Shown: piece after piece, positions 46 through 42,134 of the stretch
How positions within the stretch are numbered: position 1 is the first letter of the stretch
Layout: every line of letters starts with the position of its first letter
Source of the DNA: a virus
Virus genome (UHGV): UHGV-1358694
DNA length: 42,288 bases
Direction: 5' to 3' (one strand)
Notes under the pieces: generated by a model
The model's input: the letters and a program-made list of their open reading frames with translations, nothing else
What the model was told of the DNA's origin: nothing
Databases searched by the model: none
Position numbers and translations under genes: made by a program

Positions 46-63
46 TAATGTAAGGGGTGTAGT
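46..63 (+). promoter_or_regulatory. Copy E of a recurring motif (ttaatgtaaggggtgtagt); candidate phage-RNAP promoter or translation-initiation element abutting the ATG at 64
   Basis: Matches about 15 of 20 positions of the 19-mer at 18323-18342 (TTAATGT...G.GTAG). It ends immediately before the start codon of ORF 64-270. Confidence 0.35.
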
Positions 64-10244: not shown

Positions 10245-10299
10245 TTGACTCTGGCTCGATTCTGTGATTCACAGAGAATTAATGTGATACGAGTAGGAA
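10245..10299 (+). promoter_or_regulatory. AT-rich intergenic control region: -35-like TTGACT (10245-10250), palindrome TCTGTGATTCACAGA (10261-10275) and motif copy D (ttaatgtgatacgagtaggaa, 10279-10299)
   Basis: This is the only sizeable intergenic gap in the replication block. Copy D matches 17 of 21 positions of the 19-mer at 18323 and sits 20 nt upstream of the next gene. Confidence 0.45.
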
Positions 10300-12716: not shown

Positions 12717-13088
12717 ATGGATAAAGTATTAGACGCATACAAGAATCTGGCTATCACAGTTAGCGCTGTAGTATATGATGCTGCGGTGTACGGAGTACGC
12801 ATCCACCGCCTAGACGACGTCTATAGCGCCCTGGACAAGCTGGCCGCCATGTATGGTATGGACCTGGAGCTGGCCGCCACTGCCTTCAAAGAGCACAATG
12901 ACCTGGCGGCGCATGCAGATAAGTTACGTGGCGACGACCTCGTGCTTATCCGCGTTGTAGGTACACTCAGCATCGGGCTGGCTGAGATTGGTTCCTGCAT
13001 TTACGATGCAGACCAGAGTCTGCGTACTCCGGAAGTAATCGGGGACATGCTCGGCACCGTGCTGGTACTGTCTGAGTTGGAGGCTTGA
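12717..13088 (+). CDS. hypothetical protein (123 aa)
   Basis: The ATG lies 3 nt after the upstream stop. GGGGG upstream. Confidence 0.55.
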   Translation: MDKVLDAYKNLAITVSAVVYDAAVYGVRIHRLDDVYSALDKLAAMYGMDLELAATAFKEHNDLAAHADKLRGDDLVLIRVVGTLSIGLAEIGSCIYDADQSLRTPEVIGDMLGTVLVLSELEA

Positions 13089-14217: not shown

Positions 14218-14377
14218 GTTATACTATGAGGGGAAACATGATGAACTTGAAACTATTCTGGATGCGCTGCGTGAACGAGCACCCAAAACACATCGAAGAA
14301 CGGTTGAGCATTTGGATTCTCTCATTCACGACAATGCTATGCTGGATGTAGTGGGGGAGATTCAGGTATGGGAGTGA
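14174..14377 (+). CDS. small hypothetical protein (67 aa; start uncertain)
   Basis: Internal ATG with AGGAG 10 nt upstream. Overlaps the exonuclease 3' end by 44 nt and the HNH start by 10 nt. Confidence 0.35.
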   Translation: MAKMSAKEMSLRAIELYYEGKHDELETILDALRERAPKTHRRTVEHLDSLIHDNAMLDVVGEIQVWE

Positions 14378-15850: not shown

Positions 15851-18319
15851 ATGATTAGCGCCCTGAATACGGTTGTAGTACCAGAGGAAGCACTGGTGAA
15901 ACGCCAGCTGGAGCTTGAAGAGGCCTATAAGATTCGCGGAATCGAGCGGGCACGTAAGCTGATTACGGACGCGTTGCAGAACGGTGGTATTATGAACCTG
16001 CCTATGACGCAGCGTATGCTCACTTCGGCATATGAAGTGGCTGCTGCCGCTATCGATGAGATGCGAAATGTCAAAGCCCCTGGCATTGGTGGGAAGTACC
16101 GCCGGTTCTTGCGCTTAATCCCCTTGGATGTCCTGACCACCCTGAGCCTGTGCACAATGTTTGAGGCGTTCAGCGTCGCCCCTGGCGAGTCCGCCAGTCG
16201 CCGCCAGACTGCGCAGGCGGTAATGTCCGCACTGGGCAGGAACGTACAATCGGAGCTGCTGGCCCTGCAGTTACGCAACGTAGCCCCAGCGTACATGGAC
16301 CGCGTGTATGAGTACCTCACAGAGCGCCGTACGAAGTCCCCTACGCACATCCTGCGTACGCTCCGTGCCAGTGCCGAGAACGTACACTATGGGCACGAGC
16401 CTTGGACCAATGCCCAGAACATCTCCGTAGGGCGTCTGCTGTGTGCTGCGGTGTTTGAGACGGGACTGTTCCAGTGGAAGAACTGTAGCGGTAATCTGAG
16501 CATGCTCTATCCGGCTGACGATGTTATGGAGGCCTTCCAGAAACTGGTAGAGTCCGCTGATACCGTAACCATGAAGCCGCCTATGCTGGTACCGCCGGTG
16601 CAGCACACTACTCTGTGGGATGGTGGGTACCTCACCCCTATCGACAATCGCGGAACCTACCATAACTCGCACATTGACAGAGCTCGTCTCCGTGAAGTAG
16701 CGGAAGCATTTAAGTCCGCGGATGGCATCAAAAAAGCGCTTAATAAGGCACAGGAAACCCCGTACCGTATTAATAAGCGCATACTTGAACTGGTGCAAGA
16801 AGCACGGGCCCTGGGTGTTGGGATAGGTATGCCGCGCTCAGTACCGGAGCCGAAACCGGAGTGGTATCTGGACGGGGTTCCGAAAGAGAATTACACCGAG
16901 GAAGAGCTTGACCGCTTCGGTGAGTGGAAGACGCGTATGTCTCTATGGTACAGCGCCGACCGTAAGCGTGTATCGCAACTGCGCAGCCTTCTGACTACGT
17001 TGGAAATGGCAGAGGAATTCAAAGATGAGAAAGCCCTGTACTTCCCGACTTGTGCGGACTGGCGCTACCGCCTGTACTTCAAGTCCTCGCTGCACCCCCA
17101 AGGTTCTGATTTGCAGAAGGCTCTTCTGGAATTCGGTAGAGGTAAACCTCTTGGAGAGAGAGGGTTGTTCTGGCTTAAAGTGCACGTCGCCACTTGCTTT
17201 GGTTATGACAAAACCCTATTCGAAGACCGCGCATATTGGGTTGATAAAAATATGGCAGTTATCCGTGCAGTTGCAGAGAATCCATTTGATTCAGACGCTT
17301 TTAAGCAGGCCGATTCACCGTGGTGTTTCTTGGCAGCAGTGCTTGACCTGGTGGCTGCTCTGGATTCTCCGTGCCCAGAAGAGTACATCTCCAGAACTCC
17401 GGTTGCTATGGACGCTACGAACTCAGGTGGGCAGCACCTCTCAGCGCTCCTGAGAGACCCTGTGGGCGGTCGTCTGACGAACCTGTACTGGGAGGGTAAC
17501 GACAAGAAAGCGGACCTGTATATGGATGTGAAGCGCCGTACGGACGAGAAGGTGATACTAGACCTGGACAAGGAGGATTTCGTTATCCAGAGCACTTACT
17601 GGAGAGAGAACGAAATCACCCGCAGCATGACCAAGCGCCCCAGTATGACCTACTTCTACAGCGCCACGGTGCGCAGCTGCAGTGACTACATCTTTGAAGG
17701 CGCTTGCGCTGAGGGGTATGAAGGTACCGACACTAACAGTCTATGGAATCTGTCGTGCTACCTGGCTCCGCGTATGCGCGCCGCTATCGAGGAGGCAAAC
17801 CCTGCTGCTGCGGCAGTTATGTCGTACTTGCAGAACCTCGCTAGGCGTGTACCGGCAAGCCAGCACCTGCAGTGGACTACGCCGCTGGGTGGGCTTGTAA
17901 TGAACCGCTACACACAACGTGAGGAGGTGCGGGTACGCATTGACTGCATGAACCTCACCATCATGCGCGTGCATAACCGGGATTTCAAGACCTGCAACAA
18001 GCGCAAGGCAGCCTCCGGGATTGCCCCGAACTTTGTGCATAGCCTGGATAGTACGCACTTGATGATGGTTCTATGTGCAGCTGACGGCCTGGATATTGTG
18101 CCTATTCACGATTCCCTGGCTACTCACGCAGCCGACGTTGACGCTTTGCACCGACACATCCGCGAGCAGTTTGTGCGCCTCTACGAAGAGAATGACCTGC
18201 TTGGGGATATTACTCGCGCAGCAGCAGCTGCCGGGGCGGATTTGACGGGCCTGGATATGCCAGAGGTAGGTACTCTGGACATCCGGCAAGTGCTAGAATC
18301 TCCTTTCTTCTTTTCATAA
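15851..18319 (+). CDS. single-subunit DNA-dependent RNA polymerase (T7/phiKMV-like, 822 aa)
   Basis: Collinear with T7 RNAP: FPTCADWRYRLYF, DATNSGGQHLSALLRDPVGGRLTNL (motif A), RSMTKRPSMTYFYSAT, SGIAPNFVHSLDSTHL, VPIHDSLATHAAD (motif C) and a C-terminal ...ESPFFFS (T7 ...FAFA). Confidence 0.95.
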   Translation: MISALNTVVVPEEALVKRQLELEEAYKIRGIERARKLITDALQNGGIMNLPMTQRMLTSAYEVAAAAIDEMRNVKAPGIGGKYRRFLRLIPLDVLTTLSLCTMFEAFSVAPGESASRRQTAQAVMSALGRNVQSELLALQLRNVAPAYMDRVYEYLTERRTKSPTHILRTLRASAENVHYGHEPWTNAQNISVGRLLCAAVFETGLFQWKNCSGNLSMLYPADDVMEAFQKLVESADTVTMKPPMLVPPVQHTTLWDGGYLTPIDNRGTYHNSHIDRARLREVAEAFKSADGIKKALNKAQETPYRINKRILELVQEARALGVGIGMPRSVPEPKPEWYLDGVPKENYTEEELDRFGEWKTRMSLWYSADRKRVSQLRSLLTTLEMAEEFKDEKALYFPTCADWRYRLYFKSSLHPQGSDLQKALLEFGRGKPLGERGLFWLKVHVATCFGYDKTLFEDRAYWVDKNMAVIRAVAENPFDSDAFKQADSPWCFLAAVLDLVAALDSPCPEEYISRTPVAMDATNSGGQHLSALLRDPVGGRLTNLYWEGNDKKADLYMDVKRRTDEKVILDLDKEDFVIQSTYWRENEITRSMTKRPSMTYFYSATVRSCSDYIFEGACAEGYEGTDTNSLWNLSCYLAPRMRAAIEEANPAAAAVMSYLQNLARRVPASQHLQWTTPLGGLVMNRYTQREEVRVRIDCMNLTIMRVHNRDFKTCNKRKAASGIAPNFVHSLDSTHLMMVLCAADGLDIVPIHDSLATHAADVDALHRHIREQFVRLYEENDLLGDITRAAAAAGADLTGLDMPEVGTLDIRQVLESPFFFS

Positions 18320-18322
18320 AAT

Positions 18323-18342
18323 TTAATGTTACCGGAGTAGGA
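18323..18342 (+). promoter_or_regulatory. Copy A of the recurring motif (ttaatgttaccggagtagga); candidate phage-RNAP promoter heading the structural block
   Basis: It lies in the 23-nt gap between the RNA polymerase stop and the ATG at 18343. The 19 nt from position 2 (taatgttaccggagtagga) recur exactly at 29850-29868. Confidence 0.5.
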
Positions 18343-18783
18343 ATGAAGTTAAAACACACTAGTAAAACTTCCGACTACACTCTCAAGGTTCTGTATAAGT
18401 CCGACGACATTACAGACGCAGTGAAGCAACTGCACGAACTGGGCCACGGCATTAGTCGGGGCCTGGCTCCAGAGCAGCACTACTGGAGGGTGCTGGGAAG
18501 TATACTGGGTAAACAGTATATACTAGGAGTCTATGACTCCCAAGGCGGCTTAGTCGGTGCTGTCAGCTACTACCCAGAAGTTGTAGAGGACTGTCATTAC
18601 GTAGAGCCTGTGCTGTATACAGACTTCTTCGTATTGAAACCGGACAACGGCGCGGCAGTGTCTGTGATTATGCAGGGCCTGCACGCAATAGCCAAGTGCA
18701 TGCGCGCTGGGCGTATCGCCATTAGCCGGGGCACGTCGGATAACACATACAAGACAACTTATCATTTAGTGAGGTCAGAATGA
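18343..18783 (+). CDS. hypothetical protein (146 aa)
   Basis: First gene after the RNA polymerase. The GGAG inside the motif lies 5 nt upstream of the ATG. Confidence 0.6.
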   Translation: MKLKHTSKTSDYTLKVLYKSDDITDAVKQLHELGHGISRGLAPEQHYWRVLGSILGKQYILGVYDSQGGLVGAVSYYPEVVEDCHYVEPVLYTDFFVLKPDNGAAVSVIMQGLHAIAKCMRAGRIAISRGTSDNTYKTTYHLVRSE

Positions 18784-21533: not shown

Positions 21534-22553
21534 ATGGCCAACACTATTTATAATGGCAACCTGACTCGTCCGCACTGGGGCGGCGCGGCGTCTGACGTAG
21601 ATATTCACCTGGAAGTGTACCAGAACGAAGTGGATACCCGCTTCCAGTACCAGGCTCTGTTCCTGGGCCTCTCCAGCCAGCGCTCTATCAGCGGTTCCAA
21701 CACCTACCGTATTGACCGCCTGAACACCTCCTCGGTGAAGGGCCGTCGCTCTGGTGAGGCACTGGATAGCACCCCGGTCCGTAACGATAAGATGATTATC
21801 GTGGTGGATACGGTGCTGTATATCCGTAACCCTATTGACTACCAGGATGACTGGACCGGTCCGGACTTCCTGACCGAGATGGGTCAGAACAACGGCTCTG
21901 AGTTTGCAGAGACCTTCGACCAGGCGCACCTGATTCAGCTAATCAAGGGGCGTTCTTGGGTTGCTCCGGCGCACCTGAAACCGGCGTTCAACGACGGTAT
22001 CGAGGTAGGTGCAGCTATCCTGGTTCCGGGTACCACTGCCACCACGCAGCTGACTCAGGCTGAGATGGAGGCTAACGCCATGAACATCAACCTGGCGCAC
22101 AAGGCTGGTATTGATGAGCTCATCAAGCGCAAGACCCCGCTGGCGGATATGGTCACTCTGGTGGATGTCGATACCTATTCGCGTCTGCTGGAGCATCCGA
22201 AGCTCCTGAACATCGAATTCGGCCCGTCCAACAACGACGGTTACAAAGACCGCCGTGTAGTGAAGATGAACGGCGTGCCTGTGGTTGAGTGCACCGAGTT
22301 CCCGACCGAGGCCGGTACGCACCCGCTGGGTAGCGCCTACACCGTCACCTCTGACGACGCGCTGTGCCGTATGGTGACTTTCAGCAAGTCCAAGACCCTG
22401 GTGACTGTTGAGGCTAAGCCGTTCACCTCCCGTATCTGGGATGATGAGCGCGAGTTCAGCAACGTACTGGACTGCTACGCGATGTACAACATCGGTCTGC
22501 GTCGTCCGGACACCGCTGCAGTGACCAAGTTCACCTTCACCACCAAGTCCTAA
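21534..22553 (+). CDS. major capsid protein (339 aa)
   Basis: Size and position match T7 gp10A. Biased codon usage typical of a highly expressed gene. A strong terminator follows. Confidence 0.8.
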   Translation: MANTIYNGNLTRPHWGGAASDVDIHLEVYQNEVDTRFQYQALFLGLSSQRSISGSNTYRIDRLNTSSVKGRRSGEALDSTPVRNDKMIIVVDTVLYIRNPIDYQDDWTGPDFLTEMGQNNGSEFAETFDQAHLIQLIKGRSWVAPAHLKPAFNDGIEVGAAILVPGTTATTQLTQAEMEANAMNINLAHKAGIDELIKRKTPLADMVTLVDVDTYSRLLEHPKLLNIEFGPSNNDGYKDRRVVKMNGVPVVECTEFPTEAGTHPLGSAYTVTSDDALCRMVTFSKSKTLVTVEAKPFTSRIWDDEREFSNVLDCYAMYNIGLRRPDTAAVTKFTFTTKS

Positions 22554-22752: not shown

Positions 22753-22789
22753 GCCCCTGGTGCCTTCGGGTGCCAGGGGCTTTTTTTTT
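22753..22789 (+). terminator. rho-independent terminator with a UUCG tetraloop after the capsid block
   Basis: gcccctggtgcc-ttcg-ggtgccaggggc (12-bp stem with two G.U pairs) followed by T9. Analogous to T7 Tphi after gene 10. Confidence 0.85.
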
Positions 22790-26371: not shown

Positions 26372-29056
26372 ATGCCTGTGATTCAACCCAGTAGACGGGG
26401 GCTAAATATTGGGGGTGTGCAACTGCAGGCCAACGATGTTAGCTTACCATCAACGGTAAGTGAAGTATCCGTTGATACCTCCAAAGCAAAACGCCTAGCC
26501 GCCCTGTCTGGATTCGTGCAGGACTTCGGCGTAGGTTTCGACGAGGCAGTAAAAGAAAACGCCGCAGCCGCCACCGTGCGCGGCGCTATGGATGCTCAGG
26601 GCGCAGTAGATGCAATGGCCTCCAAGGACGAGGCTGTACAGAAGCAAAACATCTTCGTGCGCGAAGCCTACCAGGACGGCTACGTATCCGCCGCCGCGTA
26701 CGACACTCTAGCCAAGTGGCGCACAGAAAGTATTGTGCGCGCTAAGAAAGCCGCCGAGGCTGGGTTGACTGATGAGGAGTTCCAGCAGCAGGAGCAAGAG
26801 CACGTCCAGTCTATGTCGGACAAGCTTGGTATGTATCTACCGGATATGTCCAAGCAGTCCGCTACGACTATATTGCAGCAGCTCCGTGCTACAAGCATGG
26901 CTAACTACACAGCCTTCCAGAAAGGTAGGGCTGCATTTGCCCTGGCTCAGGCTGACCGTGCTCTTGACCGTGGGCTAAGCGCGTCCAGTGAGGAGTTCTA
27001 CCAGCGCTTGCAGGCGGGCCAAGGCGCCGCCGCGCAGATGTCCATTAAGACGGGCTTAGACAGTATCCTGGCTGCTGAGCACTTGGACAAGAACAAGAAG
27101 CTGGACCGGGCCAAGCAGTATCTGGTTAGCGTAGCGCAGCAGACGCAGGACCCGCTGGTAATTAACCAGCTGCAGGAAATGGCCACCAAGGAACTCGGCG
27201 TCAACTCCGTGGATGTCAACGCAGCACTGTATCAGGAGTTCAAGCGCGCCGGTGCACAGATTGAGACACAGGCCCGTTTCGAAATCTCTGATGCAATCCA
27301 GTCTCTCGAAGGTCAGACCCCAGAGCAGCAGGAACAGACTATGCAGCGTATTCGTAGTCGTGTCATTGAGCTGTCGGCATCTGATGTACTCAGCGCCGGG
27401 ACCAGCATGGAGTTCTGGAACAAGGCTCAGACCATTCGTGAGAAGGCAGCAGACGCCCAGGCATTGCGCACAGCAATTACCGGGAATATGCCAAGCTCCA
27501 CTTTGGCGGGTATGTTCAAAGGAGACTTAGATAAGGCACGTACTCAGCTGCTCAAGAGCTTTCCGGACACTCCGGAAGGGAACCTGCAGCTGCTGGCGTA
27601 CGGGAGCAACAGCAAGGACGCGTGGGCAGTCAACGAAGCGCACAAGCGTATGTCTTCGGATATGGCGCGTACGCTGACTACGCTGGACCAGCTCGGTGAG
27701 GATGGTGAGGTTTCCCGCGAGAACGTCAACAGCATCAACTTGTGGGCACAGGCTTATAGCACCAGTACGGACTTAGGGAAGATGGCGCTACTGTCTGAGG
27801 TCCCATCTGAGTGGCGCGGCGTGGTTCAGTCGGCTATTGCTCAGAACCCAAGTAACGCCAGCAACACTATCTTGGACGACCTGCGCCGCCAGGCGCGCAA
27901 CAAGGCTAGCGGCCGCTATACTGATATCCCAGAAAATCCGACGGATAAGATGGTAGACCCAAGCGGCACTGCTAACTGGTTTAGCTTCTTCGGAGATGCG
28001 GATGCCCAGCGACAAGAGGCACGGGCGGCGATGGTGGAGGAGTTCCACTACCTTAAAACCCATAACCCAGAGTCCTTCGCTGGTAAGGATGCTGATGATA
28101 TTAATAAGATGCTCAAAGGCAACATCCAATCCCGTAAATTGGAGCTGGAGGTTGCTGGTGCACCTAGGCATGTGTACCTGCCACCAGGAACTTCCTTGCA
28201 GTCCCTTATGGGGGACTACAAAGGTGATACGGAGCAGTTTACAGCATCGCTGCAGCAGCATATCCAGAATCAAGTTCAGTACCTGTCGGACCCCAGCAAC
28301 ATAGAGCGAGTGGTGATACAGGCAGCCACGGCCGGTAACGCGGGTCAGAACATGTCAGTAATCGTCATTGACAAGAAGGGCAAATTCCAGGATATGTCTG
28401 TGAATCTTCGTGACGTTCAGGCTACTGCTCAGGCTGCGTATGATTCAGCGCTGGCTGGTGAGATGAAGATTGGCAGCGAACAAGTAGGTGTACGTCCCGC
28501 TACCTTCTATGACCACGACAACGGACGTGCTGTCAGCGTGCAAGTCAACGGTCGTAACTCGGTAGGGCTGGAGCCGTCACTGTTTAGTGACATTCTCGCC
28601 ACCACTATGAAGTTCGAAGGGTTCCAAGAAGGTAAGGGCAAGGGTAGTGTAGGCTTCGGTCTGCACATTAACTCTGGCATGCCTGTCCCACAGAGAGTGA
28701 CCATTGATGACGGTATCAGTATCCTCAAGTCCTCCCTGGAGAAGCAGTACGTTCCGAACGTGCAGAAGCAACTCAAGGGGCAGGGTTTGAATGCCTCCGA
28801 CGAGGCGTTAAAGGTCATGGTGGACCTGAACTATCACGGCGGTAACGGTAGCTCTGGCCCTGTAGCAGAGGCGATGGCACAGGTACGCAAGGCTGCTAAG
28901 TCCCCGGTGGGGGCGTATCAGTACCCTGTATCTGAGGCCCAGGGTAGGGCTTGGCAAGCGCTGCGGAATACCCCGGCGTACAAGCAGGCCCAACCTGAGC
29001 GTAAGAAGTACCTAGAACAAAACCTACGCGATTGGCTCTTTGAAGCAACGCACTAA
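26372..29056 (+). CDS. internal virion protein (gp15/phiKMV gp36-like, 894 aa) with a C-terminal lysozyme-like domain
   Basis: Position and size. The C-terminal KFEGFQEGKGKGSVGFGLHI resembles the T4-lysozyme catalytic region [22 protein letters not shown]. phiKMV gp36 has the same architecture. Confidence 0.75.
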   Translation: MPVIQPSRRGLNIGGVQLQANDVSLPSTVSEVSVDTSKAKRLAALSGFVQDFGVGFDEAVKENAAAATVRGAMDAQGAVDAMASKDEAVQKQNIFVREAYQDGYVSAAAYDTLAKWRTESIVRAKKAAEAGLTDEEFQQQEQEHVQSMSDKLGMYLPDMSKQSATTILQQLRATSMANYTAFQKGRAAFALAQADRALDRGLSASSEEFYQRLQAGQGAAAQMSIKTGLDSILAAEHLDKNKKLDRAKQYLVSVAQQTQDPLVINQLQEMATKELGVNSVDVNAALYQEFKRAGAQIETQARFEISDAIQSLEGQTPEQQEQTMQRIRSRVIELSASDVLSAGTSMEFWNKAQTIREKAADAQALRTAITGNMPSSTLAGMFKGDLDKARTQLLKSFPDTPEGNLQLLAYGSNSKDAWAVNEAHKRMSSDMARTLTTLDQLGEDGEVSRENVNSINLWAQAYSTSTDLGKMALLSEVPSEWRGVVQSAIAQNPSNASNTILDDLRRQARNKASGRYTDIPENPTDKMVDPSGTANWFSFFGDADAQRQEARAAMVEEFHYLKTHNPESFAGKDADDINKMLKGNIQSRKLELEVAGAPRHVYLPPGTSLQSLMGDYKGDTEQFTASLQQHIQNQVQYLSDPSNIERVVIQAATAGNAGQNMSVIVIDKKGKFQDMSVNLRDVQATAQAAYDSALAGEMKIGSEQVGVRPATFYDHDNGRAVSVQVNGRNSVGLEPSLFSDILATTMKFEGFQEGKGKGSVGFGLHINSGMPVPQRVTIDDGISILKSSLEKQYVPNVQKQLKGQGLNASDEALKVMVDLNYHGGNGSSGPVAEAMAQVRKAAKSPVGAYQYPVSEAQGRAWQALRNTPAYKQAQPERKKYLEQNLRDWLFEATH

Positions 29057-29106: not shown

Positions 29107-32100
29107 ATGGCTCAGTTTCTGAACCAAGAACCGAATCCACAGGAAAAGGATTCTGCTAAGGGCGCAACACTTAAACCTGCGCCTGAGCGCGTAGATTGGA
29201 ACGATGCCGGGGACAACGGTCTGAACGCACTGGAGCGTGCATCCTTACTGGCGCAGGCCAAGACCCCAGCCACTACCGCCGCAGAGAGCTTTGCATCGGG
29301 TATGGGTAACAGCATCATCGCTGCCGCTATCCGCAAGGCCTCTGCTCCGGCATTTGACCGAGACCCGAACTTTAATGCTAAGCAGACCCTGAGTAGCGAT
29401 ACTCGGGCTAAGCTGTATGCTCCGAATCAGGAAGAGATTGAGTACCTGCACGACTCCGTGTCGGTAGAAGATTACAACTACCGCGTGCAGCAGATGCTTG
29501 AGCAGCGTGACCGTGACCGCTTAATGGCTGACAACACAGTAGCTGGGTTCGCGGGTATGCTGGTAGGAGACTCCCCGTTCATCCTGGCTCCGATGTCTGC
29601 TGCTGGTATTGCTGGCCGTGCGGGCTTAGCTGCACGTACCGCTATCCGCGCCGCTGACGTAGGGTCCGCATTCTACGCACAGGACCAACTGGGGCAGTCT
29701 GCTGCGGTAACTGCACTGATAGCGGGCGTAGCTGGGTTAGACCAGCTCTGGGATATGTCTCGGGCTGCTAAAGCTGCTGCTAAGGCTCGTACTGGGCGTG
29801 AGCCTATGTTCGACCCAGAAGCGCCTACAACGCGTACAGCTAGGGATGCTAATGTTACCGGAGTAGGAGAGGGAGAGGAAATCCTCACTAAGACACTGGA
29901 TGAAAGCATCCAAGTATCTAGAAACAATACCGCCTCCGTGAACATGAAAGCACAGCATGTAGTTCAGTTCTTGAAGAAGTCTGAGCACTTGACAGCAGGA
30001 CAGAAGGCTATTCTGGACACGCTGGGCGATGCTGTAAATGGCATTGATTTTAAACTGGTAGCAGGCTCCGCAAACCGCAGCCGCTACACTTATGCACAAC
30101 AAGATTTAGCTAAGCGGGGAGAGATATCTCTGCGCGCACCTAAGCAAGCTAACGGCAGCACCTGGACTACAGTCGGTGATGCGCTGCGCGCTATGGATGC
30201 AGATACAAGCAAGGTGGCCGTGCACGAACTTATTCATGCCGCTACTGCGCGCGCCATTGACAGTAATCCCGAGATTGCTAAACGCCTGGAGGAAGTGCGT
30301 GCGGTTATTGCAGCAGACTCTACCCTGACACCGCGTATGCGATATTACGCAAGTAATGTGCATGAGATGCTGGCAGGCTTAGGCGATAGCCCTGAATGGG
30401 TTGAGCACCTGGCACGTACACAGTCTCCCACCGGTAAGAGCATGCTCCGCCAACTGGGTGAGTACATCATGAATGCCTTGGGCATCAAAGCCAAGGGCTC
30501 TGCCTTGGAGGATGTCCTGGATGCGTACGAGGACGCCGTTAAGTGGACCGCTAAGGATTATGCAGACCAAGCCCAGAGCTTCCGTAGTGAGGCCTTCCAG
30601 GACCTGGCGGGCAGCACCACCCTCAATGAGGCTAAGCGTGCCCAGGCTATGCTGGACGGCGCTAAGAAGAAGCTATCCACTATGTTTGCCCTGTACGATA
30701 ATATCGCCCAAGGCAACGAAGACTTGGCTAAACTGCTAGTGTCGGATGCGTCCGCAGTAGGCGGCCGTCGCCCGTCAGTGGTAGACTACAAGCGTAACCT
30801 CACTTTGGAGATGGATGCTCGTGCCAGCGTAGTGGAAGATGCTATCCTGGGCGCGTTGAAGGATAAGGGTGTAGGGATGCTCTCACGCTTCTTCCATCGT
30901 AGTAATTTCCGCGCTGAGAGGGCTGCACTGGAAGACCGCCTGAGTAAGTACCTGGATGCTGCCTACAGCGCTGACGTAAACGGTCGCGCCATTCCGGTGC
31001 CGGATGCAGAGATTGCTCCGCTGGTTGATGCCTACCGTCGCTCTGGATGGGCTAGCAAGTGGCACGAGCATATGCTCAATGCCGGTCTAGTGGATGATGG
31101 AGCGTTGGTTAAATCAGACTACTACTTCCCACGCCAGTACAGCTACGACAAGATGCGTCAAGGTATCGCACAGGGTAACACTCTGGATGACTACCGCGCC
31201 CTGTTCCGGTCCGCCCTGCGGGACGTGTACCCGAGCATGGAGTCAGAGGTAGTGCAGCGTGTTGCCAAGGAGATGGTTGACGGCATCTACAATGGCCGTG
31301 TCGGGCAGTCTGGTCCTATGTGGAAGCAGCTGATTAACGGTATGGGTAATGACGAGGTCGTTATGGCTATGCGTAGTGCCGGTGTAGATGAGTCTGCAAT
31401 ACAGAGCTTCTTGGCCGGTAACGTACGCGAATCCGGCAGCACATCCCCTGCGCGGAACCTGCGACAGCGTACTCGGTTCAACATGGACAAAGAGTACCTG
31501 ATTAACGGAAAGAGCATGCGCATGCAGGACCTGATGGATACTGATGTAGCCAAGGTTATGCACGGGTACACTAACCGTATGTCCGGCCGTGTAGGCATGG
31601 CCTATGCAGGCGTACAGGACCTGGGCCAGTTAGCTAAGATGATTGATGAGTCCAAGCACGCACTGGCGGATTCCGCTAAGTGGGAGAAGACTGTCAATGA
31701 TACCATCGACTTTATCCTGGGCGGGGCACCTGCTGACGCTGGACAGCTTCCGGACTTGCTACGAGCAGCTGGGAACATGGCGAACGCCACTATGCTCAAG
31801 AACTCCGGCCTGTATCAGCTGACCGATACTGCTCTGGCTATGAAGGAGTTCGGTATGGCTAGAGTGCTGCGCAGTATGCGTGACCAGCCTTGGTTCAATG
31901 AAGGTGCCGTAGCTATCAAGACTCCTGATATGGCTGCCCGTCTAGACACCGTGCTGCGGGGTAATATCCAGAAGGAGATGCGCTTCCGCTGGCTGAATAC
32001 GTACGCTGACGATAACCTGGACCTGACCCGTCAGGCCTCTTGGTTCAACGTCACCCAGAACGTAGGGCAGGCTGCGCGTCACGTCAACGGCATGAGTATG

Positions 32101-32805
32101 GTGCACCGGTTGCAGGTTAACCTGAACTCCGGTATTGTGGCGGATGAGCTTACGCAGATGTTCAAGGGTGATGCTGAGGCGTTTAAGCGTCTGGAGCGTT
32201 TCGGGCTTACCCGTGACGTTGCGGACCGCGCTATCGCTGCCAACAAGGCCAACCCGGGCGCTATGTTCCAGCCGGACCTGCAAATGCAAGTCGAGGTTGT
32301 AGGGACGCGGATGATGGACTACCTGGTACAGCAAGTTCGTACTGGTGAGACTTCGCACTTCGCGCAGTTCAATCCTATCGGCAAAGTCATTGTAGGATAC
32401 CAGAGCTTCGCACTGGCTGCCACTAACAAGATTCTGCGCAGGGAGCTGAACGATGCTGGGTGGATTGGTGTAGCCCATATTATGGCGTACCAGTTCCCGT
32501 TGATGCTGCTGGCTACTATGGCTAAGCACGGCATGGATGGGAAGGACGTAAGTACCCAGAAACTCATTGGAGAGTCCGTAATGGGTATGAGCGCCATTGG
32601 TGGTATATCGCTACTACAGGATATCTTCCTGGGAGATTCTCCCCGCCACTCGTTGGCGTCTATGGGTTACGTCACAGGGCTGCTCGGGGCCGTACAGGAC
32701 CTGGCTACCGGTAATATGGACATCAAGACCTTCACTAAGCAGGTACCGTTAATCCAGGAATTCGCACCTACGCGAGCTATCATCAATAACTTTGGAGACG
32801 ATTAA
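29107..32805 (+). CDS. large internal virion (ejectosome) protein (T7 gp16-like, 1232 aa)
   Basis: Largest gene and last of the internal-protein trio. Contains motif copy B at 29850-29868. Confidence 0.75.
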   Translation: MAQFLNQEPNPQEKDSAKGATLKPAPERVDWNDAGDNGLNALERASLLAQAKTPATTAAESFASGMGNSIIAAAIRKASAPAFDRDPNFNAKQTLSSDTRAKLYAPNQEEIEYLHDSVSVEDYNYRVQQMLEQRDRDRLMADNTVAGFAGMLVGDSPFILAPMSAAGIAGRAGLAARTAIRAADVGSAFYAQDQLGQSAAVTALIAGVAGLDQLWDMSRAAKAAAKARTGREPMFDPEAPTTRTARDANVTGVGEGEEILTKTLDESIQVSRNNTASVNMKAQHVVQFLKKSEHLTAGQKAILDTLGDAVNGIDFKLVAGSANRSRYTYAQQDLAKRGEISLRAPKQANGSTWTTVGDALRAMDADTSKVAVHELIHAATARAIDSNPEIAKRLEEVRAVIAADSTLTPRMRYYASNVHEMLAGLGDSPEWVEHLARTQSPTGKSMLRQLGEYIMNALGIKAKGSALEDVLDAYEDAVKWTAKDYADQAQSFRSEAFQDLAGSTTLNEAKRAQAMLDGAKKKLSTMFALYDNIAQGNEDLAKLLVSDASAVGGRRPSVVDYKRNLTLEMDARASVVEDAILGALKDKGVGMLSRFFHRSNFRAERAALEDRLSKYLDAAYSADVNGRAIPVPDAEIAPLVDAYRRSGWASKWHEHMLNAGLVDDGALVKSDYYFPRQYSYDKMRQGIAQGNTLDDYRALFRSALRDVYPSMESEVVQRVAKEMVDGIYNGRVGQSGPMWKQLINGMGNDEVVMAMRSAGVDESAIQSFLAGNVRESGSTSPARNLRQRTRFNMDKEYLINGKSMRMQDLMDTDVAKVMHGYTNRMSGRVGMAYAGVQDLGQLAKMIDESKHALADSAKWEKTVNDTIDFILGGAPADAGQLPDLLRAAGNMANATMLKNSGLYQLTDTALAMKEFGMARVLRSMRDQPWFNEGAVAIKTPDMAARLDTVLRGNIQKEMRFRWLNTYADDNLDLTRQASWFNVTQNVGQAARHVNGMSMVHRLQVNLNSGIVADELTQMFKGDAEAFKRLERFGLTRDVADRAIAANKANPGAMFQPDLQMQVEVVGTRMMDYLVQQVRTGETSHFAQFNPIGKVIVGYQSFALAATNKILRRELNDAGWIGVAHIMAYQFPLMLLATMAKHGMDGKDVSTQKLIGESVMGMSAIGGISLLQDIFLGDSPRHSLASMGYVTGLLGAVQDLATGNMDIKTFTKQVPLIQEFAPTRAIINNFGDD
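29850..29868 (+). promoter_or_regulatory. Copy B of the recurring motif (taatgttaccggagtagga), inside the coding sequence
   Basis: Exact 19/19 identity with 18324-18342. Encodes N-V-T-G-V-G with no nearby start codon. Confidence 0.45.
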
Positions 32806-32806
32806 T

Positions 32807-35461
32807 ATGGCATTCAGCTGGCAAGAGTCGGTAAAGCCTGCAGGTACTCAGGATATCCAGTGTGATATTGAGTACCTGGATAAGTCCTATATTCACGTTT
32901 ACTTAGATGGTGCTGAGACCACTGCCTTCACTTGGACCAGCTCCACTAATATTCGCCTGAACTCGCCGCTGTCTGCAGAGACAGCGGTGCTCCTCATTCG
33001 TAAGACTGAACGAGAGTACCTCTACATTGAGTTTGCTAGCGGGGCTCCATTTATTGAGGGCAACGTAGATACCCAGAATACGCAGTTCCTGCACTTAGCT
33101 CAAGAGCTGGTTGAGGGACGCTCTATAGAGGGTTTCTATGGCGATATTAACATGCATCGCTACCGCATCACTAACCTGGGCGGCCCGGTGGATGCGCTGG
33201 ATGCTGCGAACAAGCAGTACGTAGACGCAGGTGACGCACGACTAGATGCTCGCGTAGATGCAGAGGAAGCTGCCCGTAAGGCCGCAGACTCCGCCCTGGA
33301 TGTGCGCACCACTAACCTTGAGCAAACGTACTTTAATGCTAATACTAACAGCTTCCCCTGGTGGACAATTACTGTATTTGATACCAATACAATTACACCC
33401 GGGATGCCGTTCAGTAAGGCGAAGGTGCGTTTAAATGGGGTAACTCAGACTGCTGGGTATTCCTATAGCGTATCTAACGGGGTTATCACCTTTGCGGAAA
33501 CTGTACCTGCAGGTACTCTGGTAGACGTAACTATAGGTGTAGACACCTCAGAAGATACCAGCGCTGTTTCTACTGTTCTAGGTTTATTAGCTGGGGCGGA
33601 TGGTGCTAGTTACATCGGCCTCCCTCACGGCACCTTGGGGCAGGGTGTATACTGGGTAACGCCCGAAATGTTTGGGGCTGTAGGTGATGGCGTTGCAGAT
33701 GACTCTGACGCACTGCAGGCTGCCATGAATGCCTGTGTAGAGTACGAGTGGCAGGGCACCGTTGCTGATACAGACGACCACGGCGGCACCAGTAAGTATA
33801 CCCTAATGTTAACCGGGCAGTACAGGTTCACCCGCACCCTTGTCCTGCCGCCGTTCCTTAGAATGGTGGGGATAGGTCAGTCGTACTTAGCCGACCCAAA
33901 GAATAATGTAGTAAAGTTCATTCCTGATTTCTCCTTACAGGATGGCTACGCATTTGAATCACTAAACTTTGACGAAACAGGTACGCACACGGCAAAGGTT
34001 GATACGTATTCTGCCAGCGCAAGTGACAGGCGCCTAATCACTCGCTGCCCTGGGTTACTGTTAGAAAATTTCTCCGTTGTTGCTGGGGCCAATACTTCCC
34101 TGAAGGGGATTTTCAATTTACGCCTTACACATGGTGCGGTGCTCAAGAGCATCTGTGCACGCATTACGTCCCGAGCAGCTGTTGGGGCGAACCTCACCTG
34201 CACGTGGAATGGCGCATTCCGGGATTGTATTTTCAGGACTGCAACAATTGCTCTGACACTGAGAAATAACGTTACGACATGGCTGTTTGATAACTGCTAT
34301 TTCCAGACTACCCAAGGCGACAACCCACTGCCGTGGTTTACTGATTTCCCTGAATTCTATGGGTACCCGACAAGACAAACCTGGACAGCTTGTGTAGCTG
34401 GCACTTGGTCCTCACCCCATTTTAAGGATTGCACACTAGAGAATTCTCAAAACGGCTACCGGCTTCACAGATGCCAGGGCGGTTCCGAGCACGGAACTTA
34501 CTTTGAGAATATCGAGGAAGAATGCTACGCCCTAATGGAGTGCGTACTGAGTATGACTCCAGGGTATTTTTACAGTAATAAAGGTGCGGCAGCTACCACT
34601 CGCATGGTATTTTTGTCAGGGTCTCTTGCAAATTCAGCAAGCATCGACATGACCAATACTAACTACTTTAGTCAGACTGTTGACCCTTATCACTGCTCGG
34701 GTGCCAGCAAGTTGGTTGTGACTACTGCGGGGGATATGCGTACGAGTATGAAGATAACCTACCCTAACAAGGTTATTTTCAACTGCTACTCGCAATTCTC
34801 TGGGTACTGTGATGTGTATGTATCCTCCACTGGCAATGATGGTTACAACGGGTATAGTGCCACCTACCCCGTCAAGACGCTGCAAGAAGCACTGCTGCGC
34901 TGCCAACCCGGTTATAAGAACCGAATCTATTTGGCGGCAGGGGATACTATTACAACAACCAAGTACTACTCGGACGGGTACCAGCCAAACCGTAGGTTCT
35001 TCCAAGGATACGATATTCGCATTATTGGGGACTCTACTAATAGGCCCACTTTGGTATTGGCCGAAGATAGCGCATGGTTATCTGGTGTCGGGATTAAAGA
35101 CGGCAGCATCTCTTTCTCCCAGCTAAACATAAATCTGGTGCTCTCAAGTAGTAGCAGTGCTGCTGCAACAGCATTTGGTGCACTGGTTTATGCGACGGGC
35201 AGTGCCCAAGTAATCCTGGACTCTTGTACTGTGAGTGGCAGCAGTTCCAGCACACCGGCATTCTTAGTTTCACCTGCTCAGTTGGCTGGGATGGCTACGA
35301 TACTTATTAATGATTGTACGTTGGCAAATATTAACATAGTGCAGAGTTCATCTATATCTGGAATGGGCTTAGCATATATACTAAACCACTCCGGGTGCTC
35401 ATTTACGTCAGTAACTGAGGGTGCTACGTTTGCTAAGATATATGCTAGGGCTATAGCATAA
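32807..35461 (+). CDS. tail fiber / tailspike with a pectate-lyase-type beta-helix (probable polysaccharide depolymerase), 884 aa
   Basis: The N-terminal ~110 aa resemble the T7 gp17 tail-attachment domain (IEYLDKSYIHVYLDG). Central VTPEMFGAVGDGVADDSDALQAAMN is the classic pectate-lyase-3/tailspike motif. GGAGA 8 nt upstream. The distal part drops to ~40-48% GC. Confidence 0.85.
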   Translation: MAFSWQESVKPAGTQDIQCDIEYLDKSYIHVYLDGAETTAFTWTSSTNIRLNSPLSAETAVLLIRKTEREYLYIEFASGAPFIEGNVDTQNTQFLHLAQELVEGRSIEGFYGDINMHRYRITNLGGPVDALDAANKQYVDAGDARLDARVDAEEAARKAADSALDVRTTNLEQTYFNANTNSFPWWTITVFDTNTITPGMPFSKAKVRLNGVTQTAGYSYSVSNGVITFAETVPAGTLVDVTIGVDTSEDTSAVSTVLGLLAGADGASYIGLPHGTLGQGVYWVTPEMFGAVGDGVADDSDALQAAMNACVEYEWQGTVADTDDHGGTSKYTLMLTGQYRFTRTLVLPPFLRMVGIGQSYLADPKNNVVKFIPDFSLQDGYAFESLNFDETGTHTAKVDTYSASASDRRLITRCPGLLLENFSVVAGANTSLKGIFNLRLTHGAVLKSICARITSRAAVGANLTCTWNGAFRDCIFRTATIALTLRNNVTTWLFDNCYFQTTQGDNPLPWFTDFPEFYGYPTRQTWTACVAGTWSSPHFKDCTLENSQNGYRLHRCQGGSEHGTYFENIEEECYALMECVLSMTPGYFYSNKGAAATTRMVFLSGSLANSASIDMTNTNYFSQTVDPYHCSGASKLVVTTAGDMRTSMKITYPNKVIFNCYSQFSGYCDVYVSSTGNDGYNGYSATYPVKTLQEALLRCQPGYKNRIYLAAGDTITTTKYYSDGYQPNRRFFQGYDIRIIGDSTNRPTLVLAEDSAWLSGVGIKDGSISFSQLNINLVLSSSSSAAATAFGALVYATGSAQVILDSCTVSGSSSSTPAFLVSPAQLAGMATILINDCTLANINIVQSSSISGMGLAYILNHSGCSFTSVTEGATFAKIYARAIA

Positions 35462-39911: not shown

Positions 39912-40050
39912 GTGCTAGGGTAATCCACAAGGTGAGCTACGGGACCTCTTAGGGTGACTCTGGGTGATTCTGCGGGTGCACGTCTATACCTGGACCTGAA
40001 ATTTATTAGACTCACGCGAGGCCCTCCCTCACCCTCAGCGACACCAATTG

Positions 40051-40063
40051 CCCCCATAGGGGG
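40051..40063. other. perfect hairpin cccccataggggg next to the poly-G run
   Basis: 5-bp G/C stem with a 3-nt loop, directly upstream of the poly-G tract. Confidence 0.4.
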
Positions 40064-40080
40064 TGCCTAGCGTCAATTTA

Positions 40081-40155
<75 letters not shown>

Positions 40156-40159
40156 TGGA

Positions 40160-40850
40160 TGGGTGGACGTCTAGCCGTCTAGATGGCCCTAGGGCGCTCC
40201 CAGCGGGCCTGTGCTGCGTTCTAGGGCTATCGCTAGTGCTACCCTATGCCTATCCCTGCGCGTCCACTAGGGCGCTTCCTGTGCTCTCTGTGGGTCATAG
40301 GGGCGTGCTCTGCCTTGCTTATTTTGTGCGTCCATTGTGGGCCTGCCTAGTGCCTGCGCAGTGGGGCCATAGGGTATGCCTAGTGCTATCCCTAGTGCGT
40401 ACTAGGCTATCCACTGGCTATCCTTAGTGCTTTACATTGTGCTGATTCTATGCTACGCTGCGCGCTCCCCACTAGGGCGCACTTCCACTACCCAGCACAC
40501 TCCAGCGCTATCCCAATGCTATCCCTTTGCTCTTACTTTCATTCGAAAGCTATTATGAAATGAAGTAACCGGAGTAGGAGGGTTTTAGGGCACTATATAC
40601 ACTACTACTCACTATGCACTCACTAGTATGTCCCTGTGCCTACGCAGTAGGCTGACATACCTACATAGTCACCGCATCACTCCGTGTCCTTACACTGCGT
40701 ACAGACACTGCGTTCTGCTCCATGTAGTATTATATAGTGTTAGGTAGTATTGGTTCATACTGGCTAGTATTGGCTAGACGTGGCTAGCAGTGGCTACAGC
40801 CAGTGTCGGCACAGTGCTATCCCCAGTGGCTATCCCTAGAATATATAAGG
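40160..40850 (+). repeat. non-coding terminal region packed with short direct repeats (gctatccc x8, tgcctagtgc x2, ggctag x3, tagtattgg x2)
   Basis: The motifs recur on one strand only. No ORF has an RBS here. The region lies between the right-end lysis genes and the first early gene. Confidence 0.6.
40566..40579 (+). promoter_or_regulatory. Copy C of the recurring motif (taaccggagtagga) in the terminal non-coding region
   Basis: Matches 16 of 20 positions of copy A, with the core accggagtagga identical. No start codon follows. Confidence 0.4.
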
Positions 40851-42066: not shown

Positions 42067-42134
42067 TTACAGCCTATAGCATCCTATGGGGTGCTATGTG
42101 AAGTAATTACCTAAACCAATCAACGAGGTGCATC

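Follow-up and report, generated by a model that had tools for sequence, protein, structure and literature searches.

A recurrent motif of a KP34-like Klebsiella phage is very probably the promoter of the phage's own RNA polymerase, and its -7 base covaries with the polymerase specificity loop

The closest described promoter system is that of Klebsiella phage KP34. Purified KP34 RNA polymerase (RNAP) was found to transcribe in vitro from a fragment covering the end of its own gene, and the strong promoter was defined as T(A/G)ATGTTACAGGAGTA, with the next G as +1 (Lu et al. 2019, PMC6834552). The main 5' end was placed by 5'-RACE at nt 22213, the G directly after GTA; the 16-nt strong promoter TAATGTTACAGGAGTA lies at 22197-22212 and 33721-33736, a variant at 475-490 (TGATGTTACAGGAGTA) had activity equal to that of the TAATGTTACAGGAGTA form, and a 14-nt version without the first two bases was much weaker (PMC6834552). 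In that study one of these sites directly follows the RNAP gene, a second falls within the gene for the internal virion protein, and the third is ~480 nt in from the left end; a further promoter, W (ACTTTGGACATCCGTCAAGT), which is weak and imprecise, was described in the 3' end of the polymerase gene (PMC6834552). A different motif had earlier been proposed as the Kp34likevirus promoter (Eriksson et al. 2015); it gave no transcription in vitro with KP34 RNAP (Lu et al. 2019, PMC6834552). For LUZ19 and phiKMV, promoters of the form GgtTATGTCACacACAnnGG were defined in 2024 (Putzeys et al. 2024, PMC10914365), and a 2025 promoter survey reports 467 KP34-like promoters mined in 135 genomes (PMC11880802). 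Given these three studies, promoters of phiKMV-like polymerases can no longer be called poorly defined, as the initial annotation of the present sequence had it. The promoter reading of the motif considered here is already published for the type phage and has been mined across the genus.

The DNA analysed (the window) is a contig of 42,288 nt, UHGV virus genome UHGV-1358694, which we assign to a Klebsiella Drulisvirus (KP34-like, Autographiviridae/Slopekvirinae). Its long ORFs are all on the + strand, and its RNAP-to-capsid segment is ~95% identical to phages Dlv622, FBKp18 and VLC5 and matches 269 GenBank phage records. The encoded RNAP matches T7 RNAP structures (E=7e-68) and is 94.3% identical to KP34 gp37, the KP34 RNAP. 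The contig is not a full circle: it starts at about KP34 nt ~3167 and ends at about KP34 nt ~1717, and it lacks ~1.5 kb of early-region sequence and, with it, the Eriksson motif's second copy. The copy that is present, at 42071-42102 (AGCCTATAGCATCCTATGGGGTGCTATGTGAA), is a conserved imperfect palindrome. The terminal repeat is found as one collapsed copy within the contig, at ~40026-40310. Inside this copy, positions 40080-40153 form a run of ~74 G (one C), at a point where KP34 and Dlv622 have just GGAGGGGGCGGGG and GGAGGGGGTGGTG, respectively; the run, at the physical genome end, probably arose during sequencing or assembly (two-colour chemistry poly-G) rather than in the phage itself. Between the terminal repeat and the left-end promoter, positions 40209-40530 hold short direct repeats of iteron-like look, GGCTATC(G/C)CTAGTGCTA(C/T)CC and CCTAGTGCTATCCCT (four copies of each), which may be linked to replication or packaging.

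An exact 19-mer, TAATGTTACCGGAGTAGGA, occurs on the + strand of the window at 18324-18342 and again at 29850-29868, and a copy with three mismatches, TGAAGTAACCGGAGTAGGA, lies at 40561-40579 on the same strand. Over the 16-nt promoter, the copies at 18324 and 29850 match KP34 at 15/16 positions and the copy at 40561 matches the KP34 variant at 475 (S2) at 13/16, with GGA next in all of them. The window sites also share their flanks with the KP34 sites, both those of the major form (S1; 22197 and 33721) and S2: aaaatt … ggaatgaagtta, gc … ggagagggagag and gaaa … ggagggttttag. All three window copies carry C in place of A at -7 (position 10 of the 16-mer); the left-end copy differs from S1 at -15, -13 and -10 as well, and from S2 at -13 and -10 besides -7. 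The conserved core is T[A/G]A[T/A]GT[T/A]AC[C]GGAGTA, then GGA, compared with which the consensus first suggested, TTAATGT-N5-GGAGTAGGA, was too loose. Zero matches comparable to the three copies were obtained in 100 dinucleotide shuffles of the window, and with the 16-nt promoter as query and up to three mismatches, three matches were observed against ~0.3 expected, with none on the - strand; the recurrence in a single orientation noted at the outset is thereby upheld for these three copies, and their occurrence is non-random. The window thus holds the 16-nt sequence with its following G, at the three positions known from KP34, together with a gene for the cognate RNAP. In our judgement the motif is very probably the cognate promoter of the phage's own single-subunit RNAP, as characterised for the KP34 family, which is also what the initial annotation had proposed. 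Promoter activity and start site were established in KP34 by others, and we infer activity in the window phage from homology to the mapped KP34 promoters at the three sites.

Table 1. Positions of the promoter copies and associated features in the window and in related loci
Feature	Position	Strand	Remarks
RNAP gene	15851-18319	+	822-aa T7-family single-subunit RNA polymerase
RNAP codons 703-706 (T-I-M-R)	17957..17968	+	specificity-loop block covarying with -7
Putative promoter, homologue of KP34 weak promoter W (ACTTTGGACATCCGTCAAGT)	18272..18291	+	18/20; in 3' end of RNAP gene
Strong phage-RNAP promoter (predicted), class A (-16 to -1)	18324..18339	+	predicted +1 = G18340, 3 nt ahead of ATG of first late gene (18343); begins 4 nt past RNAP stop codon
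Strong phage-RNAP promoter (predicted), class B	29850..29865	+	predicted +1 = G29866; within 1232-aa internal virion protein gene (29107-32805)
Left-end phage-RNAP promoter (predicted), class C (TGAAGTAACCGGAGTA)	40561..40576	+	predicted +1 = G40577; ~535 nt from physical left end, 3' of terminal repeat, ahead of all early genes
Promoter position -7	18333, 29859, 40570	+	C here, A in KP34
Conserved intrinsic terminator	22753..22789	+	3' of capsid gene cluster, between promoters A and B; sequence as in KP34 terminator 26623-26660
Divergent promoter-like element TAATGTGATACGAGTA(GGAACAACA)	10280..10295	+	intergenic, head of second DNA-metabolism gene block
Initially annotated copy (TAATGTAAGGGGTGTA)	46..61	+	4 mismatches; outside promoter system
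HNH-inserted loci, +355 nt	L124, L126, L128, L133, L146, L151-153, L156, L180, L181		
HNH-inserted loci, +491 nt	L132, L150		
Further HNH-inserted locus	L002:22786-23262		
Prophage module	L368:2480-2800	+	Klebsiella phage ST13-OXA48phi12.5, MK714353
Prophage module	L369:1330-1660		
Prophage module, IMG/VR loci	L006, L015, L027, L029, L044, L052, L102, L117, L118, L121		
Prophage module, IMG/VR loci	L123, L371, L376, L378, L384, L386, L391, L420, L423, L434		

Relatives for assessing conservation were drawn from IMG/VR viral contigs independently of the motif; the queries were the RNAP C-terminus and the internal virion protein. With the former query, exactly one motif was found past the RNAP gene in 61/61 informative contigs. 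Its distance from the stop codon is 4-6 nt, rising to 355 or 491 nt where an HNH endonuclease gene is inserted. In many relatives, though not in the window, such a gene separates the RNAP stop codon from promoter A; where it occurs, the insertion lies upstream of the motif, and promoter A is kept intact and adjoining the downstream gene. With the latter query, the intragenic copy was kept in 44/44 loci, in one of them with a single T-to-C change. Within this copy 5/7 third-codon positions are invariant, compared with 34/159 in the flanking 480 nt (Fisher p=0.008), and one of the two variable third positions is -7; invariance at third-codon positions points to a constraint on DNA and not on a ribosome-binding site. 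A further run of 15 invariant bases (CTGGGCGTGAGCCTA; window 29791-29805), third-codon positions included, was seen in 41 distinct sequences ~45 nt upstream of promoter B; it partly overlaps the search peptide and ascertainment may contribute to it. The motif was absent from E. coli phage P64441 and Vibrio phage 1701, whose RNAPs are 60% and 53% identical, and the promoter is therefore genus-specific. Many IMG/VR matches to ATGTTACNGGAGTAGG were set aside as an unrelated protein repeat (…VTGVGTAR…) or chance, and matches to the loose pattern TGTNANACGAGTAGGA were mostly chance.

Across these relatives the base at -7 goes with the type of the RNAP specificity loop at residues 703-706. Past the RNAP gene (site A), 30 contigs combine SAVL with -7A and 31 combine TI[M/L/V]R with -7C; the corresponding numbers are 19 and 22 at the intragenic site B, 11.5 kb away, and 26 and 26 at the left end. 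There are no exceptions at any of the three sites, concordance in the IMG/VR contigs being 61/61, 41/41 and 52/52. The 3.4 kb around the RNAP 3' end contain 915 polymorphic columns, and none except the loop codons (17956-17968) and 18333 tracks loop type perfectly; the 1.5 kb around site B contain 381, and there position 29859 alone does so. Both loop classes show the flank haplotypes, either terminal RNAP residue (C or S) and the variants at -15, -13 and -10, which argues that the association does not merely reflect two clonal lineages. That terminal residue (C/S822) had looked linked to -7 in 15 loci but is unlinked in 61, and was rejected as its partner. As to the variants themselves, TGAAGTAACCGGAGTA is the commonest left-end promoter in TIMR-type genomes (16/26), and the -15G/-13A form TGAAGTTACCGGAGTA is the sole post-RNAP promoter in 15/31 TIMR-type contigs, and in Dlv622. 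Because TGAAGTTACC... is the sole promoter at that place in these contigs, -15G/-13A must be compatible with function.

The specificity loop of T7 RNAP comprises residues 739-770 and its R756 reads -9; the loop hairpin is said, in work by Cheetham and colleagues in 1999, to read promoter positions -11 to -7. In a phmmer alignment, R696, D698, T703-R706 and H708 of the window enzyme correspond to T7 R746, N748, G753-R756 and Q758. The change L706R accompanies A-to-C at -7, that is, T-to-G on the template strand. A plausible scenario is that the -7 base is read by the specificity loop, with TIMR here and SAVL in KP34, and that R706, which aligns with T7 R756, contacts the template-strand G at -7 directly. 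The window promoter is 1 bp shorter and the loop 5 residues shorter than in T7, and because the loop-base register is unlike that of T7 we can only infer this contact. Two loop subgroups were noted by Eriksson et al. 2015, at a time when the promoter was not known, and the covariation analysis of the 2025 survey was run on T7-like enzymes only (PMC11880802). In the literature searched, which took in the main text of that survey, we found no statement of covariation between -7 and the loop. What appears to be new here is the exception-free pairing of -7A with SAVL and of -7C with TI[M/L/V]R, which would define a natural specificity switch.

A transcription scheme for the window phage can be proposed on this basis. 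The polymerase would bind the 16-bp duplex from -16 to -1, melt GAGTA and start at the following G (18340, 29866 and 40577); by KP34 homology these starts coincide with the GG of GTAGGA, where they had been anticipated. Promoter A would drive the late structural operon (portal, scaffold and capsid genes) as far as the terminator at 22753. Promoter B, 3' of that terminator, would re-supply transcripts of the tail-fibre, terminase, lysis and tailspike genes, and the left-end promoter would let the phage enzyme transcribe the whole genome from the left end. Lying upstream of the RNAP gene, the left-end promoter, together with copy 10280 if that copy is active, would give positive feedback. These operon roles are presumptive. 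The late transcription units of the phage can be annotated with confidence; conceptually, nothing new comes from the motif.

Five copies had been annotated initially, of which those at 18324, 29850 and 40561 are certain, the one at 10280 is uncertain and the one at 46 is a chance resemblance. Copies 10280 and 46 each match the 16-nt promoter at 12/16 positions. At this level (4 mismatches) the window has seven matches on the + strand and three on the - strand, against ~1.1 expected per strand, and the excess on the + strand is probably compositional or due to chance. The remaining + strand sites are 32, 881, 25394, 33804 and 36043; at 881, 25394 and 36043 the coding sequence is well conserved in KP34 and Dlv622, yet drifts away from the promoter there. 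Where the window has the copy at 46-61, KP34 and Dlv622 read TTTAACGTGCGGGGTGTGG, within coding sequence, so that this copy lacks conservation at the homologous site in relatives and was rejected as a promoter.

Copy 10280 (TAATGTGATACGAGTAGGAACAACA) is identical in KP34 (at 12983) and Dlv622 (at 14338). When Drulisvirus loci were sampled via the downstream phosphoesterase gene, it was invariant in 51/52 of them, with 10 nt upstream varying, and it stood 39, 316, 435 or 466 nt from the phosphoesterase start, kept whatever genes follow. The odds are roughly even that this copy is a weak phage promoter, the other reading being a host promoter or a 5'UTR element. According to the latter, to which we give slightly less than an even chance, it would be a host sigma-70 promoter or 5'UTR element (TTGATT-N18-TAATGT, an AT-rich upstream element and TTGACT) that is phage-like at its ends only. 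Our reasons for taking this seriously are that: (i) the four mismatches (three against the KP34 form), at -10, -8 and -6 and, in the window phage, also at -7, all fall within the -10 to -6 specificity region, and the copy neither matches from -12 to -6 nor shows co-evolution with the loop; (ii) -7 is A in both RNAP classes, and hence there is no covariation with the loop; (iii) TTGACT/TTGATT and an AT-rich tract are conserved upstream; and (iv) the local genes need expression before phage RNAP exists. Against the host reading, a consensus scan gave no sigma-70 match at the position, conservation is sharp from about -19 to +9, as in a single-subunit RNAP promoter, and TAATGT (-16 to -11) and GAGTA followed by GGA (-5 to +3) are retained exactly. 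Also against it, one Drulisvirus has the -6C variant TGATGTTACACGAGTAGGA as its left-end promoter, and this variant recurs in prophage arrays. The Drulisvirus in question, a SAVL-type genome (L481, IMGVR_UViG_2974544971_000001), has this G-to-C change at -6, and the prophage arrays with the same variant number five; use of TGATGTTACACGAGTAGGA as a left-end promoter implies that some change in the region around -6 is tolerated. A 15-bp palindrome beside copy 10280 (TCTGTGATTCACAGA) was dropped, as it is not conserved in relatives.

The pattern scan with the motif also matched loci that lack an RNAP, in the context …AATTTAATGTTAC[C/A]GGAGTAGGAA…, with 24 nt identical to window 18319-18342. These loci belong to lambdoid temperate phages and prophages of K. 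pneumoniae, for example ST13-OXA48phi12.5, ST101-KPC2phi6.1 and RCIP0114. They carry a module of ~380 bp in the intergenic space between Rz1 and a terS-like gene (lysis/packaging), antisense to both. In every locus the order is a hairpin, a T7-group promoter, TTTAATAGTGGCGAGTATAGA, a KP34-type promoter, a 5'UTR, a strong ribosome-binding site (AAGGAGG) and an ORF of 36-38 aa. The first promoter is of one of the T7/T3/K11-like types ATTAAGACTCACTATAGGAAGA, TAATGCGACTCACTATAGGAGA, AATTAGGGCCCACTATAGAGA, ATTACAACTCACTAAAGAGA and AATTAGGTAGCACTATAGGGAGG; ATTAAGACTCACTATAGG is identical to 2/11 co-oriented promoters of the T7-like Klebsiella phage TVB03. The middle block, TTTAATAGTGGCGAGTATAGA, reproduces exactly the consensus promoter of Molineuxvirinae phages of Klebsiella: phage Kp7 has 12 co-oriented copies at gene junctions, including one with 21 nt identical, and 20 further phages of this group each have it at 4-6 places. 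The KP34-type promoter is the -7C, the -7A or the -6C variant (TAATGTTACACGAGTAGG). At least four sequence types were found among the ORFs, all strongly hydrophobic (GRAVY 0.9-1.7; best 17-aa window 1.7-2.5) and with no match in Pfam, PADLOC, NCBIfam or PHROGs. No sigma-70-like promoter was detected in the module, and Rfam gave no RNA family there. The module is an accessory insertion, present in 9/80 prophages sharing the adjacent terS-like gene and in 5/5426 E. coli genomes; scans of genome contigs gave no match and then five chance matches.

The simplest model suggested by the layout of these loci, tentative and possible rather than probable in our view, is that the module is a tripwire: the RNAP of an invading Autographiviridae phage would fire the array and a small membrane toxin would abort the infection. 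Only the invader's own polymerase would fire the array, and the product, a membrane peptide like a type I toxin, would kill or depolarise the cell; the SAVL/-7A versus TIMR/-7C polymorphism would then be one of escape and counter-escape. Alternatively, the module may encode a superinfection-exclusion peptide boosted on infection, or it may serve antisense silencing of the prophage lysis genes. The tripwire model has a counterpart in an engineered triggered-suicide defence for lactococcal phi31, in which Djordjevic and colleagues reportedly, in 1997, fused a phage-inducible promoter to a lethal gene. As there, the module is predicted to place a lethal or membrane-active gene behind a promoter fired by the invading phage's transcription machinery alone; unlike the engineered case, the Klebsiella module is natural and stacks three promoters for three RNAP families. 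In the literature searched we found no description of a polymerase-triggered prophage module, though one may nonetheless have been published. If true, the tripwire model would amount to a new anti-phage sensing principle, in which the invader is recognised by its transcription specificity, and would bear on the choice of Autographiviridae phages for Klebsiella therapy.

For the motif itself, it was also considered that it is mainly a translation-initiation element (a Shine-Dalgarno GGAG with spacer) and not a transcription signal, which we hold to be highly improbable. In the copy at 18324, GGAG (-6 to -3) does stand at a good Shine-Dalgarno spacing, 5 nt ahead of the ATG at 18343, and it probably serves read-through transcripts from the RNAP gene. 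However, the copies at 29850, in frame within a gene, and at 40561, non-coding and with no start codon nearby, show equally strict conservation, and with +1 at 18340 GGAG is absent from promoter-initiated mRNA. Covariation with the RNAP loop, moreover, has no translational explanation. The caution voiced initially, that part of the motif could act in translation initiation, accordingly stands for the 18324 copy and its read-through transcripts only, and falls for the others. We would expect mRNA initiated at promoter A to have a 3-nt leader, with GGAG acting as a Shine-Dalgarno sequence only on read-through or W-initiated transcripts. That the motif is a site for some other DNA transaction (phiKMV-like nicks, packaging, replication or a homing-endonuclease target), of the kind Eriksson et al. 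suggested for their own motif, is extremely improbable: one copy does lie close to the genome end and many relatives carry an HNH endonuclease gene beside site A, but these insertions are upstream of the motif and leave it intact, the near-identical KP34 sequence was biochemically shown to be a promoter (PMC6834552), and the RNAP specificity loop is the only covarying partner of the motif across 3.4 kb.

We favor, then, the reading of the motif as the promoter of the phage's own RNAP, and in this light the system can be compared with its described counterparts. As in LUZ19 and phiKMV, the copies are few: one or two directly follow the RNAP gene, and the structural region holds one. Unlike there, the window copies are all sense, whereas the early region of LUZ19 has an antisense copy, and the sequence is unrelated: no TATGTCAC, and hence no promoter of the type GgtTATGTCACacACAnnGG, was found on either strand of the window.

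With T7 the window system shares a single-subunit RNAP, a promoter of 16-17 bp, a TAAT start and a melting segment before the +1 G, and its left-end promoter presumably corresponds in position to T7 phiOL. Beyond the TAAT start the motif is unrelated to the 23-bp consensus of the T7 group (Studiervirinae) with its CACTATAGG core. Unlike T7, with 17 promoters, the window phage has three or four per genome, and its RNAP gene is at the end of the middle region. According to Raskin and colleagues, T7 RNAP N748D is reportedly retargeted to the T3 bases at -10/-11. As in the T7/T3 switch, a few residues in one beta-hairpin change together with one promoter base; unlike it, the core sequence is unrelated, and the window switch involves -7 and the residue opposite R756 in the alignment, not N748.

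The closest likeness remains that with KP34, which extends to the 16-nt element, the three genomic positions, the flanks, the orientation, the +1 context (GGA) and an RNAP that is 94% identical. Unlike KP34, the window phage has -7C in all three copies and TIMR instead of SAVL at RNAP 703-706, and its left-end copy also has -13A and -10A. The covariation of -7 with the loop defines, between the two types, a ready-made and probably orthogonal polymerase/promoter pair within the KP34 family.
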